Shown: in pieces, positions 1,557 to 63,731 of the stretch
How positions within the stretch are numbered: the stretch's first letter is position 1
Layout: every line of letters starts with the position of its first letter
DNA from: Amoebidium appalachense
Taxonomy: Eukaryota; Protista; Ichthyosporea
DNA length: 64,000 nucleotides
Reading direction: 5' to 3'
Assembly (NCBI GenBank): GCA_963693365.1
Contig: CAVNZM010000002.1
Coordinates: forward strand, 16,773,615-16,837,614
Program-made: the position numbers and the translations under genes
Notes under the pieces: model-generated
Database searches by the model: none
What the model was told of the DNA's origin: nothing
Seen by the model: the letters and a program-made list of their open reading frames with translations, nothing else

Positions 1557-14316
<12,760 letters not shown>

Positions 14317-14911: not shown

Positions 14912-15053
14912 CTAGGAGTCCTTAGCAGGGTAAAACAGCCCTAAAAGATTCAAAGGAAGCCTCGCTGATACACCCTTTTTCTTCTACCTCCAACTCCCTC
15001 TTCCCGTGGCACCCGCTACCCAGCTCACTGTGTATACTGGGCAACCATCAAAC

Positions 15054-15488
15054 ATGCAACTGCAACTGAACACGGCAGTGGCGGCCGAAGGACTCTTCTG
15101 GTTTGCAACAGCGGGGGCTGCCGCTGCTGCGTTGAAGCATCTGTTTACGCCGACGTCAGTTTTCAAGGAGCTCACTCCAGTTGCTCTGAGGGAGGGAGGT
15201 GAAAAAGACAAGCAAGAGGCAAGCCCAGAGGCCTTGTGGTGGGGTGGTTATGCATTCTCAGCCATGAACGTAGGGACAGCCTCTTTTGCTCTCTTTGGAG
15301 CGTACAAGCAGAATCAGGCTATCAAGCAGGCGTATCTTTTTGGCGTCGGGGTGATGTTTGAGTGTTTTGCTCTTGCTTGGTGGACGAGAGGGAGCATAAC
15401 GGGAAACAAGAACCACAAAAAGCAGAGTGGAAAGATAGCAGCCTTTGGTGCCTTGTTCTTGTATGGGTGTGCCATTACTCCTGCTTAG
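15054..15488 (+). CDS. Intronless small multi-pass membrane protein (~144 aa), unknown function
   Basis: Repeat-free ORF from aaacATG, MQLQLNTAVAAEGLFWF...FLYGCAITPA, with about four hydrophobic segments and an upstream TATA box. Confidence 0.7.
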   Translation: MQLQLNTAVAAEGLFWFATAGAAAAALKHLFTPTSVFKELTPVALREGGEKDKQEASPEALWWGGYAFSAMNVGTASFALFGAYKQNQAIKQAYLFGVGVMFECFALAWWTRGSITGNKNHKKQSGKIAAFGALFLYGCAITPA

Positions 15489-16985: not shown

Positions 16986-17360
16986 CGTGTGTGCACGTGT
17001 GTGTTGTGTGTGTACATCTTCAGTCAGTGTGTGTGTGTGTGCACGTGTGTGTTGTGTGTGTACATCTTCAGTCAGTGTGTGTGTGTGTGCACGTGTGTGT
17101 TGTGTGTGTACATCTTCAGTCAGTGTGTGTGTGTGTGCACGTGTGTGTTGTGTGTGTACATCTTCAGTCAGTGTGTGTGTGTGTGCACGTGTGTGTTGTG
17201 TGTGTACATCTTCAGTCAGTGTGTGTGTGTGTGCACGTGTGTGTTGTGTGTGTACATCTTCCGTCAGTGTGTGTGTGTGTGCACGTGTGTGTTGTGTGTG
17301 TACATCTTCAGTCAGTGTGTGTGTGTGTGCACGTGTGTGTTGTGTGTGTACATCTTCAGT

Positions 17361-17375
<15 letters not shown>
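16986..17375. repeat. 42-bp tandem repeat x9
   Basis: GTGTGTGCACGTGTGTGTTGTGTGTGTACATCTTCAGTCA units; 14-aa periodicity in the ORF track. Confidence 0.9.
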
Positions 17376-17404
<29 letters not shown>

Positions 17405-18264: not shown

Positions 18265-22222
<3,958 letters not shown>

Positions 22223-23078: not shown

Positions 23079-24341
23079 TTTTTTTCTTCTGACTGGATTT
23101 ATTCGACGGAAAGATATGCAAGTATGCACGGCATATACTGAGAAGACAATAAAAACTTCACGAGTTATCCGGTAACAAGTGCATACTGAGATACCTGAAC
23201 GCTGTGTGGAAATCATATAAATACTCTTTGTGACGACCAACAGAATTCAACAAAAAGTCTAAAGTGTTCACATTGCCAGCTAGTGTAGCAGACACCCGTA
23301 GGGAAAGAGGTAAAACGCAAGAATTTTTTTCTTTTCTTTTGACTGGATTTATACGACGGAAAGATATGGCAAGTATGCACGGCATACTGAGAAGACAATA
23401 AAAAAAACTTCACGAGTTATCCAGTAACAAGTGTATACTGAGATACCTGAACACTGTGTGAAAATCATATAAATACTCAATGTGACGACCAACAGAATTC
23501 AACAAAAAGTCTAAAGTGGTCACATTGCCAGCCAGTGCACAGTAACTCAGACACCCGTAGGGAAAGAGGTAAAACGCGACATAAAAACTCACAGTCACCT
23601 ATCAACATGCTTGCGATTAAAAGGTTCAGCACAAAAGTGGCACCAGCGGCGATGAAAACAAAAATTACAACGCCACTGCACAACTTCCCAGGCAATATCA
23701 ACATCAGAGCACCATACAGACTTATCTACTAGGGTGGTATCCATACGTACAGCAGGAGAAATATATCCTGCCAAAGCCCCCCAAAAGCGATAATGATCAG
23801 TACGGTGTTGCTTAGTAAGGAACATAACACATGCCGACTGAGTTTTACCTTTGATTTCGCTATCAGAACGAGAAAGAAACTTATACTGCGTATGGTAATA
23901 ACGCGAAAAGGCAGAAAAAACAGGAAGAGAAAAGAAAGAGGGAGTGAGATAGCGAGAGGAAGAATCAGGTTGAAAGAGGGTAGGCTGAGGACATTCAGAA
24001 GTAGCGTTGGTGAAATGGGGGGGAAGAGGGATGGAGGGAGGGGGGGGGGAAAGAAAGCATAACGAGGGTGACCAACAGGTATCCTTATTATAACTAGATG
24101 AAAGCAAAAACGAAGAGACAATTCCTCCATACGACAAACAGCAGGCGACAATCCAAACATACTGATTGAGGGAGGTACAAACCGAGTACGAAACAAAGTG
24201 CGCAGCGCTATACCCTGAAAATCGTCGAACTCTTTCAGCGCCACGGCCGCCTCGCGAGGTGAGGCGCAGGCCAATAGCGGAAGTCCATATTCGATAGTCG
24301 GCCGTAAAAAAGTTTTATAGTAGAGAAGAAGGTTCGCAAGA
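23079..24341 (-). mobile_element. 3' fragment of a non-LTR retrotransposon (same family as 27836-30516), with its last ~250 bp tandemly duplicated
   Basis: Near-identical reverse complement of ~29505-30515 (YKTFLRPTIEYGLPL..., HRRWCHFCAEPFNRKHVDR). The 3' end with A-rich tail occurs twice (~23079 and ~23323). Frameshifted. Confidence 0.9.
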
Positions 24342-27771: not shown

Positions 27772-27835
27772 AAGAAATTTTTTTCATTGTTACTGGTAAG
27801 TTAGGTAAATGTTGCACACATGTGAAAAACTAGAC

Positions 27836-30516
27836 TAACCGCCGCCTCTTATCTCGCGGTTTCAAGCACAAGTTAAAACAGTTACTCGCCGTCAAGGAGT
27901 ATGCGTCGGTTCATGGCTTCTTTCTTGTCGCAGTGCGCGACGCCCGTGCGCAGCGCGGTTTCAAGTACAAGTTAAAACAGTTACTCGCCGTCAAGGAGTA
28001 TGCGTCGGTGTTCATGGCTTCTTTCTTGCCGCAGTGCGCGACGCCCGTGCGCAGCGGAACCCGGCTATTTTGGAGGTTTGTTATAATGAGTTTGTTGAGT
28101 TTCTATTTGCCTTTGGCGAGCAGGTGGTGGGCACGGTTAGTACCCTTCCGTTCGGCTGTCGACAGTCTCACGTTTTGCAGTCCCTACGACAGTTGTTGTC
28201 TCTACAGGAAGCATTATCGGTCTGGAAATCCGCCGGTTGGTTTGGGCCTTCCGTGCAAGTCTATGCCCCGTCTCCTTCCATCTCCGTCGCTGAATCCGTC
28301 GATGACTATTATGCTTCCCTATTTTCGCTTCCTAATGTGTCCACGGTTCCATCACCGCCCGCTGGCCTCTCCCAGCCGCCGAGTTGGGAGCCGGACCAAA
28401 TCGTTCCCGGGCACTTTTCACAGTTATTTCAACTCTTCGGCTGTTTTTGGTGCTATACGGGTGTTAAAACCCCGCAAAGCGTGCGGGCCGGATGCTCTTC
28501 CTCCCGTGCTTTTCAAGGTTCTTTCTCCCGTGCTTCCGCCCCGTAATCGCGCAGAGTCCCCCCCGCCCCCGCCTTTTGCTGTCCTTCTTAGTGAGTTTTT
28601 TCCCGGCTTTTTTCGAACTCGGGTTTATTCCAAATTCGTGGCTTGACACAATCGTTACGCCCGTTCGTAAGAAGGTATCGCAGGGGGTCATTAACGACTT
28701 TCGTCCCGTCACACTTACCAACGTTTTTCGTCGGCTCTTCGAGGGTTGCATGCTTCGCGCCTTTAACACCGACGATTCTTTAAACGCCGTGTTCCGTCTT
28801 TCTTCCCTTCAAGGGGGCTTTCGTCATGCCTATTCATGTTATACCCACAGCCTGTTACTCCATGAATCCATTACTTCTGGCTCTCCGCACGTTGTCTTCA
28901 TCGACCTTAAGAACGCCTACGACACCGTACCCACTGGTTTGTTATGGCATAAGCTGGCTATGCGGGGCTTACCAGCCCCCTTTGGCCGTCTTCTGCAAGC
29001 GCTGTTCTATACCACTCGCGGACGAGCGGCGGTCAATGGAACATTAACGCCCGGTTTTTCTCGTTCTCGGGGTCTTCTGCAGGGGTCCCTCCCGAGTCCG
29101 TTGTTGTTTGACGTTTTCATTGACGATTTAGCCTGCGCCCTCGAACCCTTTGGCCAACTACATACCCGCCGTGTACCGGGTCTTCTTTTTGCGGACGATA
29201 TTGTCCTTTGTTCCTTAACCGAAGGTGTCATGCACCAGATGCTTCGTCAGGTGGATCAATGGTGCACCGAGAATCTCATGACAGTCGAAATTGCAAAGTG
29301 TGCTACTTTTTCGAAAAACGCTTCCTTTTGGCCGCTCTTCCTATTCCTGTTCAGAGCACCTATGACTTAGTCTATTTGGGTATTCCTTTTACTGCACTGG
29401 GTGTTGATTTCCGCAAGCTCCTCACGGCACGGATCGCTCGTGCGAAGGGTAAGCGAAGTTCACATCGTGTCAAATATGCTTCAACGGGACTCGTCTGTGA
29501 TCCATCCTGCGAACCTTCTTCTCTTACTATAAAACTTTTTTACGGCCGACTTTCGAATATGGACTCCCGCTATTGGCCTGCGCCCCACCTCGCGAGGCGG
29601 CTGTGGCGCTGAAAGAGTTCGACGATTTTCAGGGTACCGCGCTGCGCACTTTGCTTCGTACTCGGTTTGTGCCTCCCTTAATCCGTATGTTAAACTTTGG
29701 ATTGTCGTCTGCTGTTTGTCGTATGGAGGAATTGCCTCTTCGTTTTTGTTTTCATTTAGTTAGGATACCTGATGGTCACGCTCTTTATGCTTTCTTTTCC
29801 CCCCTCCCTCCATCCCTCTTCCCCCCCGATTCACCAACGCTACTTCTGAATGTCCTCAGCCTACCCGGCCTCTTTCAACCTGATTCTGCCTCTCGCTATC
29901 TCACTCCCTCTTTCTTTTCTCTTCCTGTTTTTTCTGCCTTTTCGCGCTATTACCATACGCAGTATAAGTTTCTTTCTCGTTCTGATAGCGAAATCAAAGG
30001 TAAAACTCAGTCGGCATGTGTTATGTTCCTTAGGCAACACTGTACTGATCATTATCGCTTTTTGGGAGCCTTGGCAGGATATATTTCTCCTGCTGTACGT
30101 ATGGATACCACCCTAGTAGATAAGTCTGCTGTATGGTGCTCTGATCAAGTTGATATTGCCTGGGAAGTTGTGCAGTGGCGTTTTAATTTTTGTTTTCATC
30201 GCCGCTGGTGCCACTTTTGTGCTGAACTTTTTAATCGCAAGCATGTTGATAGGTGTGAGTTTTTATGTCGCGTTTTACCTCTTTCCCTAGTACGGGTGTC
30301 TGCTACACTGGCTGGCAATGTGGCCACTTTAGACTTTTTGTTGAATTCTGTTGGTCGTCACATTGAGTATTTATATGATTTTCACACAGTGTTCGGGTAT
30401 CTCAGTATGCACTTGTTACTGGATAACTCGTGAAGTTTTTTGTTGTCTTCTCAGTATGCCGTGCATACTGCATATCTTTCCGTCGAATAAATTCAGTCAA
30501 AAGAAGAAGAAAAAAA
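27836..30516 (+). mobile_element. 5'-truncated non-LTR (LINE-like) retrotransposon with frameshifted RT and C-terminal Cys/His motif
   Basis: Domain 0 KACGPDAL, then DFRPVTL, QGGFR, FIDLKNAYDTV, GLLQGSLPSPLLF, LLFADDIV, YLGIPF and C-terminal CHFC-x7-H-x3-C. AATAAA and A-rich tail at ~30486-30516. ~97-bp tandem duplication at 27856-28055. No endonuclease seen. Confidence 0.9.
28492..29370 (+). pseudogene. Reverse transcriptase core of the LINE
   Basis: RT motifs 1-6 in one frame (FADD catalytic motif); flanking parts lie in other frames. Confidence 0.9.
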
Positions 30517-30859
30517 TATACACATACAACCCGCCCCTGGATATAAAGTCTTGGAGGATCCGCGTGATGCGCTGGGACCCAATGAGAGACAGCTCAATTT
30601 AAGCCAAACCAATCGGGTTTGCATTTCGAACCCAGCTAGGACCTGCTCAGCGGCTCGGGAGTCGGAGCAGGCTGGCCTGGTGCATCATCAAAAAAAAAAA
30701 CGATCACAACCCGGCGCAAACAGAAACTAATATCAAGCATGCAATAATTAATAAGGACGTCGGAGACTACGCAGGGCTGGAAGATGTTACTGTATTCCAG
30801 GGGTTCCCGACCAATTCGTGTCCTTGCTTTCTTTCTTTCTTTTTCTTACTTTTTTTTTG

Positions 30860-32271: not shown

Positions 32272-32991
32272 TTATTTGCTTTTTTTGTCTTCTCTTTCCC
32301 TTTGCTTCTCAGCTTCTATTTCCTCTCTCAGTTTTGCCGCAACTGCCTCGGGCACCTTTGCGCTATTCAACAACAACTCCTTAATCTCTGCTTTAGTCAG
32401 CTCCTTTTTTGATGCCTGTACATGGGGTTTGCTTTCCCTGAATTTTGAATATACATGTGGTGCAAGGAAGGTAACAGCGGCAGCAAAGACCGTCAACAAA
32501 AACAAGCATTTGCTTGCTGTTGCAAGAGCACAATAACGAAAAACGTTTTCATCATTTCTCTTTATCCAATCAACACAGAAACCTAAACAGACAATATTTT
32601 CAATCATATCCGAAAACAAGTAAAGAAGTGACAAAGGGAGCAAGCGAGGAGAGATGAGGAAAGAAGCAACCGCAACCATGTCCATAGACACGAAATCGAA
32701 ACATTCGTGTGCAATAACATAGGCAGAGTCAGCAGGTTTCGGGAAAAAAAGGGTGAAGTTAACAGCTGTCCACGAGGATTTTATGCTGGCCGGGTCGTAG
32801 CCTCCCAATTTTGCGCAAAATCTGCTGAGAGCCCAACAGACGGTGGCGGCCACCAGCACACGAAGGAGGAGTGGGTTATCGTCTTCGGCTTCGTCTCCTT
32901 TTCCTCCCCTTGACTCTTGGTGTCTCGAAGCACTGGGCTCGGTTGTGACAGAGGCATTGGACGAGGAAGTGTGTTCGGTTTCTTGACTCAT
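32272..32991 (-). CDS. Single-coding-exon multi-pass membrane protein (239 aa) with charged tail and C-terminal KKSK
   Basis: Repeat-free 720-nt ORF; hydrophilic N-terminus, 3-4 hydrophobic segments, coiled-coil-like tail, KKXX-type ER retrieval end. Confidence 0.75.
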
Positions 32992-34203
32992 TCTTAAAGT
33001 TCAGGAAGAGCAAGTACGTGCGTGTGTGTGCGCGTGCGTTTGCGTGTGCATGCGTGTGTGTGTGTGGGTCTTTGTGTGTGCGTGTGTACACACGTGTGTG
33101 CGTGTGCGTGTGTGTCTGTGTGTGCGTGTGTGTGTGCGTGTGTGTGCGCGCGCGTGTGGGTACCCACGCGCTCTAACGCCACGCCCCGTCAAAACTTAGA
33201 AGACGAAAAATACCTTACCAAGCGGTGAATTTATGTGATAATAGATTTTTTTTACTCTGCTTTAGACCTGCCTTGCTTGTAAGATTTGCGTTTAGTGATG
33301 TTTTCTTCCCCAAAGCCACAGGCTGTGTGAGAGACTGCGAGTGCGAGAGCTGCTCTGTACAGACAGATGACTGAGCCTAGTCTCCAAGGCTATGTACCCA
33401 CTGGCTTATGTAAGTGGCTGAGCACTACTACGTGTCGCCTGCGGCAACATACAAGGTATGTTGACTTGTATGTTGAGCTGCGCCGCAGGGAGACAGCACT
33501 CAAAGTGACTACTAGACTGAGCCGTGTCATCGCAAAGGAGGCAGTGACAACAAAACCATACATGCCATTCACATACCATTCATCCAATTTAAGCGCCGTA
33601 TTGGACAGTGAATTCGTAATTACATACCACATGGATACTTCAGTTCTGGACATCTTGCACGGGTGTTGCATGCTCAGTGTCGGTCTCAGTGTTGCATCTT
33701 TTGTCTGTTAGTTATATATAGGTAGGAGTTTCGCAAGAGGGTTTTTTGGTTCTATTGCCACTAGCATAGAGGCAAAATAAAAGGCTGTATGCAGGATAGG
33801 TGCTGGTTCTGTTTTTCTATTCCAGTATGCGCTGTTTTTGGTGAACTGTGGGCATGTGCAGGTTTCTTCTGCTGGAGTTCGGCACCCGTTTGCAGGCAAG
33901 GGATCAACATCATAATTCCGTTCTGTTGCTTAGCACGGGTCTTTCCCCTTGCTCCTCACTGCCTCGTCCGTATGCAATTTATGTGCCATCTATTGTATAC
34001 CGGCTCTTTTGTGGTCCACGGTGCCTGTTTGTGTCATCTCCTGTGTCTTTCATCCACGTGCCCTTGTCTCTCTAGCTCCCTCCCTCCCTCCCTCCCTCCC
34101 TCCCTCCCTCCCTCCCTTCTCCCCTCCCCCCCTCTCCCCCCGTCCCCCTCTCTCACACCCTCCGTCTCTCTCTCTCTTTTTCTCTCTCTCTCGCTCTCTC
34201 TCT

Positions 34204-35874: not shown

Positions 35875-35989
35875 CACACACAACTTGCTGGGTGCCTGCA
35901 CGTAAGACACGTTCTTGGGGTGCACTAATTTTCCCGCTAGCATGGCTTAGTGTTTGCATATATTTTTCTGTCTAGGCAAGTGTTTGGCT

Positions 35990-36290
35990 CCGTGTTCATG
36001 TGGTTCTGTGTTTATGTTGCTCTATCCTTGTGTGGCTGTGTTTTGTATTGCCCCGTGCTCATGTGGTTCTGTGTTTTTGTTGCTCTGTGCTTGTGTGGCT
36101 GTGTGTTTGTGTTGCTCTGTGCTTGTGTGGCTGTGTGTTTGTGTTGCTCTGTGCTTGTGTGGCTGTGTGTTTGTGTTGCTCCGTGCTCATGTGGCTCTGT
36201 GTTTGTGTTGCTCCGTGTTCATGTGGGTCTGTGAATGTGTTGCTCTGTGCTTGTGTGGCTGTGTGTTTTTGTTGCTCTGTGCTTGTGTGG
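35990..36290. repeat. ~33-bp minisatellite (GTTGCTCTGTGCTTGTGTGGCTGTGTGTTTGT)
   Basis: About nine degenerate tandem copies. Confidence 0.8.
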
Positions 36291-37106
36291 CTTCCCTCAT
36301 CCGCCCTCTTAAGCGTTCTTTTTTTGCCTCTCATTGCACATTGGTCTGAGCCATTGCACATTGGTCTGAGCCTGCATGGGGCCTTATGTTTAGAGGGCCC
36401 CGGCTCCTTTCTTCCCCTTTCCCCCCTACAGACTTGTCGGTCAGCTCTTGTACAGCACCAGGCAGAATGTTCATCTCTACCTTCCCCCCCCCTCCCCCCC
36501 CGCACCCCCCCCCCCTCCCCCACCATGTTATCCAAAAACAACAAAAAAATTTGTGATATGCGGCCTTTTGTACCCAACCGTTCATGCACCCTATTCCCTG
36601 CTCTGCCACTATGTATCTCTGTGCTCTTTGCTGCTCGAATATTTGTGTCTTTCCCCCCCCTCCCCCCCCCCCCCCCCCCCCCCCCCCCCACTGTGCGCCC
36701 TACTTTAGGTCGCATACTTGAATGTTTGTTTTCGCATACCAGTGTGTGTCTCCTGATGTAGTTGTACTTCGTTATGTTTGCCGCATTCTAATCCCCCCCC
36801 CCCCCCCCCTTCCTCCCTGCCCGGGGTCCCCGTTAACCCATACACCCACCTTTCCCTATTGCGAAGTCTTTCTCTTGTTATCTGCTATTTCCTTGGTTCT
36901 TTTCTTAGACTGAATATCGGGTTAGGCACTCACCCCTCATCCCTCTGCCGTTGTTCATGTTTATTCGTTTTCTGCGTTGCCGTGTGCCCAATTTTCTTGG
37001 TTTCTTTTTTTTTGTTTCCTTTGTTTCTTTGGGTTTTTTGATGCCTGTGCCTTCATGTTTACCACTCTCTGCATAAATTATTCCCCCCCCCCCCCCCCCC
37101 CCCCTC

Positions 37107-38509
37107 CTCATCGTGTATGCGTACTTCGTACTGTGTTCCGCATTCAAACCCCCCCTGTCTTCTTTCAGAGGTGTCCTTTCAGGACAGACCACTGTGTGGA
37201 GACATCTTTACTTCCATGCAACCGGGCATGGTTGCTCTGTGTCGTGCATCTGTAAGCACATACGCGTTTGTCGCTGCACTGCATTAGTTTGCACATACAT
37301 CTTCACCGTTTTGCTCACCTTGCTTGCATAAGCAACCCTGCTCGTCTTTGATCAAGACGGGTTGACCCACCCAAGTTCAGTTGATGCTGCTGTCTGAGTT
37401 GGAGCGTCGTATATACGCGGGCTAAGGGGTCGAAACTCAGACGCAATTGATGACTTGGGCCCTCCCTGAGGATGGGCTCTGCTTATGACGCATACTGTGC
37501 GCATGGCTGATGCTGCATACTTGAATGTTTGCCTTTGCATGTGTCCTGCACCATGCTTCTCATCGTGTATGCGTACTTCGTACTGTGTTCCGCATTCAAA
37601 CCCCCCCTGTCTTCTTTCAGAGGTGTCCTTTCAGGACAGACCACTGTGTGGAGACATCTTTACTTCCATGCAACCGGGCATGGTTGCTCTGTGTCGTGCA
37701 TCTGTAAGCACATACGCGTTTGTCGCTGCACTGCATTAGTTTGCACATACATCTTCACCGTTTTGCTCACCTTGCTTGCATAAGCAACCCTGCTCGTCTT
37801 TGATCAAGACGGGTTGACCCACCCAAGTTCAGTTGATGCTGCTGTCTGAGTTGGAGCGTCGTATATACGCGGGCTAAGGGGTCGAAACTCAGACGCAATT
37901 GATGACTTGGGCCCTCCCTGAGGATGGGCTCTGCTTATGACGCATACTGTGCGCATGGCTGATGCTGCATACTTGAATGTTTGCCTTTGCATGTGTCCTG
38001 CACCATGCTTCTCATCGTGTATGCGTACTTCGTACTGTGTTCCGCATTCAAACCCCCCCTGTCTTCTTTCAGAGGTGTCCTTTCAGGACAGACCACTGTG
38101 TGGAGACATCTTTACTTCCATGCAACCGGGCATGGTTGCTCTGTGTCGTGCATCTGTAAGCACATACGCGTTTGTCGCTGCACTGCATTAGTTTGCACAT
38201 ACATCTTCACCGTTTTGCTCACCTTGCTTGCATAAGCAACCCTGCTCGTCTTTGATCAAGACGGGTTGACCCACCCAAGTTCAGTTGATGCTGCTGTCTG
38301 AGTTGGAGCGTCGTATATACGCGGGCTAAGGGGTCGAAACTCAGACGCAATTGATGACTTGGGCCCTCCCTGAGGATGGGCTCTGCTTATGACGCATACT
38401 GTGCGCATGGCTGATGCTGCATACTTGAATGTTTGCCTTTGCATGTGTCCTGCACCATGCTTCTCATCGTGTATGCGTACTTCGTACTGTGTTCCGCATT
38501 CAAACCCCC
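37107..38509 (+). mobile_element. Tandem array (~3.1 units) of a 452-bp non-coding retrozyme-like element
   Basis: Exact 452-bp period (37352/37804/38256); units look identical by eye. Starts mid-unit, ends at CATTCAAA-C run, poly(C) on both flanks. Confidence 0.9.
37391..37480 (+). ncRNA. Candidate hammerhead ribozyme, non-circular (swapped-strand) permutation; repeated at +452 and +904 and at ~39852-39941
   Basis: TGTCTGAG-T-T/GGAG (37391-37404), GGGTC-GAAA-CTCAGAC (37427-37442) and CTCC-CTGAGGA-TG-GGCTC (37462-37479) can form stems III, I and II around a CUGANGA/GAAA/GUU core. Confidence 0.7.
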
Positions 38510-38670: not shown

Positions 38671-38837
38671 CACGCACAAACACATACACACATACACAAC
38701 ACACACAACACCCCACCTCCCCCAGGTCTTTATACATGTAGTTGTGTTGTCGTCGTTATAGTGTGGGTTTTTGCCCCGTTTAACTTTTTAAATTCATGTG
38801 ATATTGTTGCGTTGCACCTCTCCCCTCACTCTTTGGC

Positions 38838-38966
38838 CATGACGGGGTGACTCGCCTATTGCCAAATCGAAGCACAGGATGGGTTGGGAACCAGGCATTA
38901 GATGTTGAAGAGTCGATACCCATTCGTTTGTGAAGGCATGGGAACCTCCTGGATGATGGGCTCTCT
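38838..38966 (+). mobile_element. Highly diverged subfamily (E) core of the hammerhead-bearing repeat
   Basis: GGATGGG-T-T-GGG ... GAGTC-GATA-CCCATTC ... CTC-CTGGATGA-TGGGCTC: same layout, different stem sequences, mutated core. Confidence 0.6.
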
Positions 38967-39703
38967 TCAAGTGTCTTCTGCCTGCACAAATGATTTGGTT
39001 TCTGTTTTTTTGTCTTGTTTTAGTGGTTTTTTTTTATGTCCTTGCCTCCGGATTTGCCACTCTCTAATTCATACCTTCTCCCCCCCTCCCCTCCCCCCCC
39101 CCCCCCCCTCCCCCTCCTCCCTCCCCCCCCCTCTCAGTGTGTGTGGGGTGAACGAGTTGAATCGCTAGCATTATGGATGACTCCCCCCCCCCCCCCCCCC
39201 CGGGCCAGGATTGGCGTTCCATATTCTTTTTTTTTTTTTTTTTTTTTGTATATCTGCATCATGTTTTGCCTCGTGATTTCCTGCTTCATACTGTGCCGCA
39301 CACTCAAACCCATTCCCTTCCCGTGTGTCCCCACACACTCAAACACATGTTCGCACACACGTGTACGCATTCACACACACATCAACACGCAAACACACAC
39401 ACACACACTGACACTCACACACACTTACACACTCACACTCACACACACACTCACACTCACACTCACACACACGTACACAAAATCACTCACTTACACACTC
39501 ACACTCACTCACTCACTCACATAGACATACACACCACCCTTCACCTCCCCACCCTTCTCCGCTGGGGTGCAATGGTAGCTGCTTCAAGCCCAGTTGTGGA
39601 TGCTTATTCCTTTTCATTCTTAAAATCATTTTCCCCTTTTCTAAACACCCGTGGAAAACTGCCCCGTGGATGCCCCCCCCCCCCCTCCCCCCCCCCTCCC
39701 CCC

Positions 39704-40068
39704 CGTGCATCTGTAAGCACATACGCGTTTTTCGCTGCACTGCATTAGTTTGCACACACATCTTCACCGTTCTGCTCACCTTGCTTGCATAAGCAACCCT
39801 GCTCGTCTTTGATCAAGACGGGTTGACCCACCCAAGTTCAGTTGATGCTGCTGTCTGAGTTGGAGCGTCGTATATACGCGGGCTAAGGGGTCGAAACTCA
39901 GACGCAATTGATGACTTGGGCCCTCCCTGAGGATGGGCTCTGCTTATGACGCATACTGTGCGCATGGCTGATGTTGCACACTTGAATGTTTGCCTTTGCA
40001 TGTGTCCTGCACCATGCTTCTCATCGTGTATGTGTACTTCGTACTGTGTTCCGCATTCAAACCCCCCC
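39704..40068 (+). mobile_element. 5'-truncated monomer of the 452-bp element
   Basis: Near-identical to the array unit; poly(C) on both sides; same 3' end. Confidence 0.9.
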
Positions 40069-40413: not shown

Positions 40414-42063
40414 CCACCACCACCACCACACAAACACACACACTCAAACTTGCACGGGCCAACTGCATGCCTCACCCAGTTAAGCACACCCATGACGACC
40501 ATGCCCACCACTTAAATACACACACCAACTATCCTACTCCTCCCCCCCCCCCCCCCCCCCCCCCCAACACCGCAACGATGTTATCCGTTGTGAATTTGTT
40601 CTTCGTACTGTGAAACAATCAAACCCCCCCCCCCCCCCCCCCCCCCCCCCACCACCACCACCACCACCACCCCCTTCTTCACCCACTCCCCTCCTCGCCC
40701 TCCTTGCCTTATTTATGCCTGACCTTCCCACCCCCATCCCCGCCTCCCCCCTCCCACGCGCACTCACCACACACCCTTTCCCCCGGGGAACTAACTCACT
40801 TTCAGGTTATTTCAGGTAAACCGTTTCCTCCTTGCTCTGGTCTGCTCTCCCCTCCTGATCATCTCGACATTTCCTTCTAATTGCTCAAATTGTTTTTTGG
40901 AAACACTCCCCCCCCCCCCCCCCCCCTCCCCCCACCTCACCTCGGGCTGTCCTCCCTTTTCTTCTATTCCTTAACACACCCACATGCATACACGCTCACG
41001 CCTACACACCCACACAGGCTCAATCGCTCACTTGCACGGGCACACCCACACGCACACACACCTCGCACGGACTAACCAACACCGCACACCACCACCGAAC
41101 TATTTATAGTCGACTCTTACGTATGGTCCCCATACATTTGCCCTTGTTTTCAACCTGCACCCACACGTGCATTCACCAACATACCACTAGGGCATAAGCG
41201 GCTAGCCGGACAGATTATGCAGGCACGCAAATGCTCCCAAAACACCGCATACACCCCACCATGGATGCTAGTGCCAACACCCCCACACCCACACCCACAA
41301 CACACACCCTCTGCGGACACACGCACAGACACATCCCCTTCTCTTTTCTTTCTGCCTTTTGAGTATCATTACAACCCGAAGATTTGTTTCATACTGCTGT
41401 GAGTGTGTGTTTTTCAACACAACGCGATGGCTGCCCGGTATCGTCAATGGAATAGACAATGCTCTAGATATGGCCAAAAGGCACAAATCCTATCCCCCCC
41501 CCCCCCCCCCCCCCCCCCCCACCCCCCCATCCGGTCCTCTCATTTCCCAGCGTGTGTGCAAACATTCCCATACACATAAATCAAATATGCAGACAAAGCC
41601 CAGAAGCTTGTCATATGATAAGGCACGTTCACAGTGCACGCCTACACACACATATCACACCGGCATGCATGCAAGAAAGTACCTGTAACACGTACGTACA
41701 CTCTTGTTTGAACACTAGCCGTCTGTTATACACACAAGGACATCCACACCGTAACACTCGCACACACACGTGCCTGGCACACACGCACACACACACGCAT
41801 AATTATACCGGCACACAACACACACAGGTATACATGATGGTGTAAGCGATACCGTTGCTTACAGCGTTGCTAGTACGTTTCCCGTTGCTTGCAGCCTTAC
41901 TGGCGCCGTTGCTTTACCGTTGGGGTGTGTCCAATGATGACAGTAATGGTGAGTGCAATGCCGTTGGTTGGACTTAGGGTGTAGGCAACCCATGTCATGT
42001 GAAAGCAACGGTGTCACTTCCACCATTAATGGAGTAATTGATGGTAGCACTAGCAGCATTACT

Positions 42064-51221: not shown

Positions 51222-63731
<12,510 letters not shown>

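Follow-up and report, generated by a model that had tools for sequence, protein, structure and literature searches.

The DNA analysed here, a 64,000-nucleotide stretch from Amoebidium appalachense (the window), is of eukaryotic nuclear origin. Its exons are short and its introns rich in poly-C/G and CA repeats; C or G runs of at least nine occur 169 times across it. An SPFH/Band 7 gene of six exons lies on the minus strand, where it was mapped with P0001, a protein derived from a transcript and identical to it at 100%; a cluster look-up with one exon returned Band_7 clusters only. Exons of an RTEL1/XPD-like helicase lie at 51-58 kb; the name RTEL1 is putative and comes from a reading of its motifs. 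The first RTEL1-like exon seems by eye to have a GC donor, not GT (51286-51290, plus strand). Also present are a LINE-like element with an RVT_1 domain (27834-30517, plus strand, and 23079-24341, minus strand), which is frameshifted and has an A-rich tail, and whose minus-strand copy ends in a tandemly duplicated 252 nt; a GT-rich minisatellite at 16987-17393 (8.5 copies of a 48-nt unit, 98%); and another with GT-rich units of 16/32 nt at 35981-36292. Two intron-free frames (14934-15488, plus strand; 32272-33000, minus strand) have no Pfam match at E ≤ 0.01.

At 37107-38509 (plus strand), a head-to-tail array comprises 3.1 units of 452 nt, with poly-C flanks on both sides. Three units are 100% identical, in agreement with the repeat reported in the preliminary description of this DNA. 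The repeat is non-coding and tandem, with one predicted ribozyme per unit, and no stop-to-stop frame of 120 amino acids lies wholly within the array. A 5'-truncated copy at 39704-40061 (plus strand) is 98% identical and has an intact core. A copy of 1.3 units at 19301-19910 (minus strand; the 19.4-kb copy) occupies an intron of the SPFH gene, on the sense strand; one of its ribozymes is missing block S (see below) and the other carries A15.1→G. Subfamily B is represented by a monomer at 3189-3640 (minus strand; the 3.3-kb copy), about 440-452 nt between C runs, with an intact core and a 5' half that cannot be aligned to subfamily A, that of the array. Subfamily C (56267-56470, plus strand; the 56.3-kb copy) is 5'-truncated, has a mutated core and lies in an intron of the helicase gene. 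The divergent subfamily D (38795-39085, plus strand; the 38.9-kb copy) has a mutated core, a two-sided change in stem II and a different 3' end. A 3'-end fragment lies between C runs at 36690-36791 (plus strand), and similar fragments occur at 39253-39308, 40566-40623, 54027-54068 and 57603-57635, and at 20472-20510 on the minus strand. A second family that ends in poly-C is present at 36826-37083 and 38995-39105 (plus strand; 73% similarity across 114 nt of 3'-end sequence), and its 3' end is common to subfamily D and absent from A, B and C. With a profile of the ribozyme domain we found nine copies and one weak match in the window. All blocks are present in eight copies; the core is intact in five of these eight, or in two of the five distinct sequences, and is mutated in the other three.

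The predicted ribozyme is built from three blocks, all on the plus strand. Block S (37391-37404) consists of a stem III strand, U16.1 (37399), H17 (37400) and a stem I strand, and the RNA is predicted to be cut after 37400. Block G (37427-37443) consists of the stem II 11.x strand, GAAA (37432-37435; G12 is 37432) and the second stem III strand. Block C (37462-37472) consists of the second stem I strand and CUGAGGA (37466-37472; C3 is 37466). The preliminary description had placed the three strands, there called A, C and B, at these same positions, and their unusual order recurs in all three identical units. The hammerhead core letters CUGAnGA, GAAA and UH are all present, as are core-adjacent stems I, II and III, together with pairs G10.1-C11.1 and A15.1-U16.1. 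Stem III extends 8-12 bp beyond 15.1, stem II has 5-6 bp and stem I only 3-4 bp. A descriptor in which the blocks could stand in any of the six orders, with thresholds taken from the motif itself, gave five matches, every one in the order S-G-C (four identical copies and the 3.3-kb copy), and in 200 local dinucleotide shuffles gave six loose matches in any order and no strong one. No canonical, circularly permuted order was found within 130 nt. Rfam models returned no ribozyme match at E ≤ 5; the remaining matches were driven by microsatellites and fell below the gathering score.

The claim that pairing persists while sequence changes holds for stem III, in which four of eight pairs have changed on both sides. 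Support for stem I, of 3-4 bp, is thin, and the stem I proposed for the 56.3-kb copy is out of core register. The two copies put forward as evidence of covariation are both defective in the core, a point left unstated: in the 38.9-kb copy A14→U is accompanied by one additional G within the CUGA box, and the 56.3-kb copy carries A13→G together with U16.1→C.

The partner of the stem II strand in block G probably requires revision. The strand directly after CUGAGGA, originally assigned to this role, is invariant and pairs in five of five distinct sequences; the stem has two G-U among five pairs, two extra nucleotides and no two-sided change. A strand upstream of block S (37364-37368, plus strand; G10.1 is 37364) instead forms five Watson-Crick pairs with 37427-37431, the first of them G10.1-C11.1. 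Stem II energies for the upstream versus the downstream strand are -7.1 versus -3.5 kcal/mol in subfamily A, -8.7 versus -3.5 kcal/mol in subfamily B (3.3-kb copy) and -5.0 versus -4.4 kcal/mol in subfamily D (38.9-kb copy). The upstream strands of the copies fall in the same alignment columns; one pair is altered on both sides in the 38.9-kb copy, and in the 56.3-kb copy one pair is kept as G-U and one is broken. For each copy, 9-16% of shuffles contain a fitting upstream 5-mer by chance. When the core is scored as a whole, the split wiring is 95.0% paired with six two-sided pairs and the contiguous wiring 96.3% with five, and because these scores are alike the alignment by itself does not decide between them. 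A descriptor for the split core found five strict and seven relaxed matches in the window and none in 300 shuffles; it was written from the motif and misses the 56.3-kb copy.

Several further predicted helices surround these blocks. Helix Y, present in the minimum free energy structure, pairs 37327-37338 with 37474-37487 and would close the opened core, with pair probabilities of 0.64 distally and 0.21 proximally. Hairpin Z (37341-37361; probability 0.96) lies between Y and G10.1 and is weaker in the 38.9-kb copy. Helix W (37370-37382 with 37445-37459; probability 0.98) is looser in subfamilies B, C and D. The 22-nt linker between S and G folds, by eye, into a small hairpin (37404-37418) whose sequence differs in every subfamily. 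The first six nucleotides of the 3' strand of Y are the originally proposed stem II strand, and they can also pair with 37364-37369. This pairing between the two candidate strands may represent a possible off-state; the nested fold that contains it is 2.7 kcal/mol less stable than the best scaffold. Among three nested folds compared, Y+Z+W+III is the lowest (-45.7 versus -43.0 and -36.5 kcal/mol), and the parts that it leaves unpaired are exactly the core and the strands, four in all, that make up stems I and II. The probabilities near 0 that these two stems receive in nested folding are uninformative, since the program cannot form pseudoknots. A circular monomer has modest structure only (z -1.6), and folding is no weaker for the minus strand than for the plus strand (z -3.3 versus -2.3).

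Between subfamilies A and B, the conserved block begins at 37318, some 70 nt 5' of the span given originally, and takes in Y, Z and the upstream strand at 83-95% identity (Y 5' strand, at 37318-37340, 19/23; Z 20/21; stem II strand 7/8; core 10/11; Y 3' strand 16/18). The 5' halves are no more alike than shuffled sequences, 171 of 200 of which scored as high. The module is larger than 37391-37480, and extends over about 37318-37490. The A/B conservation from 37318, the scaffold in which the stem I and stem II strands stay unpaired and the same blueprint, read by eye, in Naiad elements (see below) together favour the split core. Stem II probably forms with the upstream strand, and was probably mis-paired in the preliminary description; this removes the oddity of extra nucleotides after A9 and makes the wiring different from that of published SGC ribozymes.

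The proposed structure would be a knotted hammerhead core in the order site-GAAA-CUGAGGA, with two additional helices, Y and Z, inserted so that they open it between A9 and G10.1. Y, Z, W and III would form a nested scaffold on which stems I and II could then close as two pseudoknots. Helix W would connect the strand lying 3' of stem II' with the one lying 5' of stem I', the part that the 'I' helix plays in type-SGC ribozymes. Topologically, the design could be derived from type-SGC if an 8-nt bulge linked the 3' end to the 5' end and the circle were reopened in block C between A9 and G10.1.

The block order site-GAAA-CUGAnGA is already known as type-SGC (Eckert et al. 2023, PMC10085705); the proposed opened core and the nuclear setting are new in the literature searched. 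In the portions of that paper available to us, type-SGC ribozymes (HRIMA-1 and SGC variants) cleave at 0.007-0.19 per minute and come only from viroid-like metatranscriptome RNAs, with no genomes of known organisms, and the CUGAnGA block (block C) is assumed never to be interrupted. In most of the alignment rows shown there A9 is followed by a U, and the rows include both GUU sites and CUGAGGA. The repeat shares with these ribozymes the S-G-C order, two core pseudoknots (predicted for the repeat), U before G10.1, GUU, CUGAGGA and a helix between the distal ends of stems I and II (W in the split model). It differs in its S-G linker (22 nt with a hairpin, against about 3 nt), in the stem II 10.x strand, which is probably upstream of S whereas block C is contiguous in type-SGC, and in being a nuclear DNA repeat instead of an RNA from metatranscriptomes. 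The earlier reading of a pseudoknotted, non-circularly permuted hammerhead is supported and has this precedent, and it changes in the stem II partner and the limits of the module. The published SGC descriptor, as given in the same portions, would miss the 452-nt element because it requires CUGAUGA and an S-G linker of 0-8 nt.

A similar arrangement appears in Penelope-like elements. Naiad 3' ends are reported to be without canonical hammerheads in the sections of Craig et al. (2021, PMC8557442) that we consulted. Four unrelated Naiad ends in its supplement (near parts 10-11, 12, 19 and 24) follow, by eye, the order Y-Z-II'-W-S-G-W-C-Y, with stem II letters GGCUCC/GGAGCC, GGCCCC/GGGGCC, GACACC/GGUGUC and GACGCC/GGCGUC. 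Among the matches listed for the Chlamys consensus sequences, no split hammerhead was clear by eye at CTGAGGA (matches 7-25 of 25), CTGACGA (7-23 of 23), CTGATGA (29-56 of 62) or CTGAAGA (7-14 and 17-43 of 43). In a slime-mould consensus (near part 51 of the supplement), CUGAAGA precedes a GAAA by about 95 nt, and a possible partner for stem II lies in the interval; this is perhaps the same cyclic order opened elsewhere, a weak resemblance seen by eye.

These comparisons bear on whether the repeat is an ordinary type-SGC hammerhead, with stem II formed by the strand after CUGAGGA and the upstream match serving another role or an off-state. The downstream strand does pair in every distinct sequence, the published SGC rows that we could compare have the U after A9 and similar core-proximal letters, and the 38.9-kb copy, in which helix Y is poor, extends the downstream stem II by 8 bp and follows it with an 8-bp helix as in HRIMA-1, both compatible with contiguous wiring. 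Against this, the contiguous stem II has half the pairing energy, shows no two-sided change, needs a bulge or two extra nucleotides and leaves the conserved 70 nt upstream unexplained, and the Naiad ends with the same blueprint cannot, by eye, pair in this way. We consider this reading unlikely.

The preliminary description recognized the repeat, but missed that it appears to be a mobile element that targets poly-C. Insertions end at a shared 3'-end motif with an internal C7 run (37556-37607, plus strand), the putative priming site; the insertion end corresponds to the C7 run within the unit, 200 nt past the predicted cut. A profile built from eight ends had 15 matches at E < 0.001, comprising 11 insertion ends and four internal units. 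Eight of the 11 ends, the same eight from which the profile was built, run directly into C runs, and the other three into shorter C-rich stretches. The 5' sides of eight insertions examined start after C runs, at variable points. A fixed 3' end, 5' truncation, (C)n sites and head-to-tail copies are thus all observed in the window. Element ends occur about once per 6 kb (11 in 64 kb), which would amount to thousands of genomic copies if the window is typical. All five A/B/C insertions that reach the ribozyme run past at least one predicted cut site and none starts at one, the nearest start lying 9-11 nt downstream; since insertions cross cut sites and never start at them, the template would have been circular or uncut. 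In both ribozyme-bearing insertions that could be placed on the sense strand of introns (the 19.4-kb and 56.3-kb copies) the ribozyme is crippled, a hint, from two cases, of selection against cutting in pre-mRNA.

Chlamys elements insert at (C)n, are truncated at the 5' end and include non-autonomous copies arranged head to tail, such as MRC1, according to the available sections of PMC8557442. The repeat resembles them in all these respects. It differs from Naiad and Chlamys elements in the lack of an ORF and the absence of an autonomous partner in the window; Naiads prefer (TA)n and have animal hosts. No Penelope-like reverse transcriptase was found in the window, where the sole reverse transcriptase is LINE-like, and no tRNA-derived head of the element was found. 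The LINE was rejected as a partner: it has an A-rich tail and no common end, and its best match to the element has an E value of 0.13.

In a possible cycle, one cut per unit along the RNA would set free monomers of 452 nt, which ligation could turn into circles. The G strand of a poly(G.C) tract would be nicked by an enzyme supplied in trans, with priming on the internal C7 run of the RNA, giving both truncated and longer-than-unit copies. A Penelope-like reverse transcriptase starts inside its RNA (PMC11167929). We give this scheme of monomer release, circles and trans priming on the C7 run roughly even odds. The broader model, that the repeat is an active split-core hammerhead in an element likely spread into poly-C by a borrowed Penelope-like reverse transcriptase, is the one that we lean towards.

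The fold might also be derived from a hammerhead and not cut by itself, acting instead with the help of a protein or as a handle for the reverse transcriptase. The hammerhead of anole Poseidon cuts only with its protein, and Poseidon insertion in vitro is independent of cutting (PMC11167929); for the repeat there are many near-equal alternative folds, no insertion end lies at the cut site and three of the five distinct cores are mutated. However, core mutations are to be expected in old copies, and neither the youngest family nor subfamily B has a change in any core letter, even though their 5' halves have diverged beyond alignment. We view a fold that does not cut by itself as improbable, to about the same degree as the contiguous wiring.

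Hammerheads that act as dimers have a short stem I. The short stem I of the repeat and its tandem occurrence would also suit a canonical hammerhead assembled across tandem units or from two RNAs, in which case the odd order would be only apparent. This is contradicted by stem III, which ties S to its own G block over 8-14 bp with a probability of 0.99, by solo copies that retain the whole design and by the lack of a canonical order nearby, so that we hold such an assembly to be quite improbable. A chance match in a structured repeat, for which one might invoke the many ways that short GC-rich motifs can pair and the lack of an Rfam match, is very improbable given the shuffles for both descriptors, the absence of stems I and III together from all 29 pattern-matched viral loci and the presence of the same design, by eye, in Naiads.

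Non-LTR retrozymes of animals carry type I hammerheads and have a proposed Penelope-like origin, and circular monomers have been shown for them (Cervera and de la Pena 2020, PMC7229834; Li et al. 2026, bioRxiv 10.64898/2026.07.22.740005; both as far as their accessible parts go). Like them, the repeat is non-coding and tandem, with units of a few hundred bases and one hammerhead each; they differ in hammerhead class, type I in the retrozymes and SGC order in the repeat. Judged by its letters, the repeat would work like a hammerhead of the SGC cyclic class, and not as a type I retrozyme.

If cutting by the split-core hammerhead occurs, it would break the rule, as it stands in the available portions of PMC10085705, that CUGAnGA and its stem II strand are inseparable. 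It would add one more hammerhead permutation to the six so far considered possible and, in the literature searched, would be the first case of the non-circular class in nuclear genomes; genomic ribozymes would have been undercounted by descriptor searches, and the insertion point inside the core could be of use for ribozyme switches. It would also account for the apparent absence of hammerheads from Naiad and most Chlamys elements in the parts of PMC8557442 that we drew on. More tentatively, and with the chances somewhat against it, an active hammerhead opened at A9/G10.1 could be the ribozyme so far missing from Penelope-like elements of the Naiad/Chlamys branch throughout eukaryotes, used here by a poly-C retrozyme that moves via circular RNA, with the decoy strand as an off-switch, and providing a link to viroid-like type-SGC RNAs.

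We also searched more widely for related sequences. The literature, covered as text without figures and with limited subscription coverage, describes no split-core hammerhead and no type-SGC ribozyme in a nuclear genome. A 21-mer of the family had no match in viral contigs or prokaryote genomes. The 11 loci that a gapped G+C pattern matched in metagenomes were all judged chance matches in unrelated sequence. Four core-split patterns matched 29 loci in viral contigs, none with both stems I and III. By eye, the pattern-matched phage contigs L026, L027 and L030 (match at 301 onward, plus strand) carry a canonical type II-like motif in the order GAAA-site-CUGAnGA.
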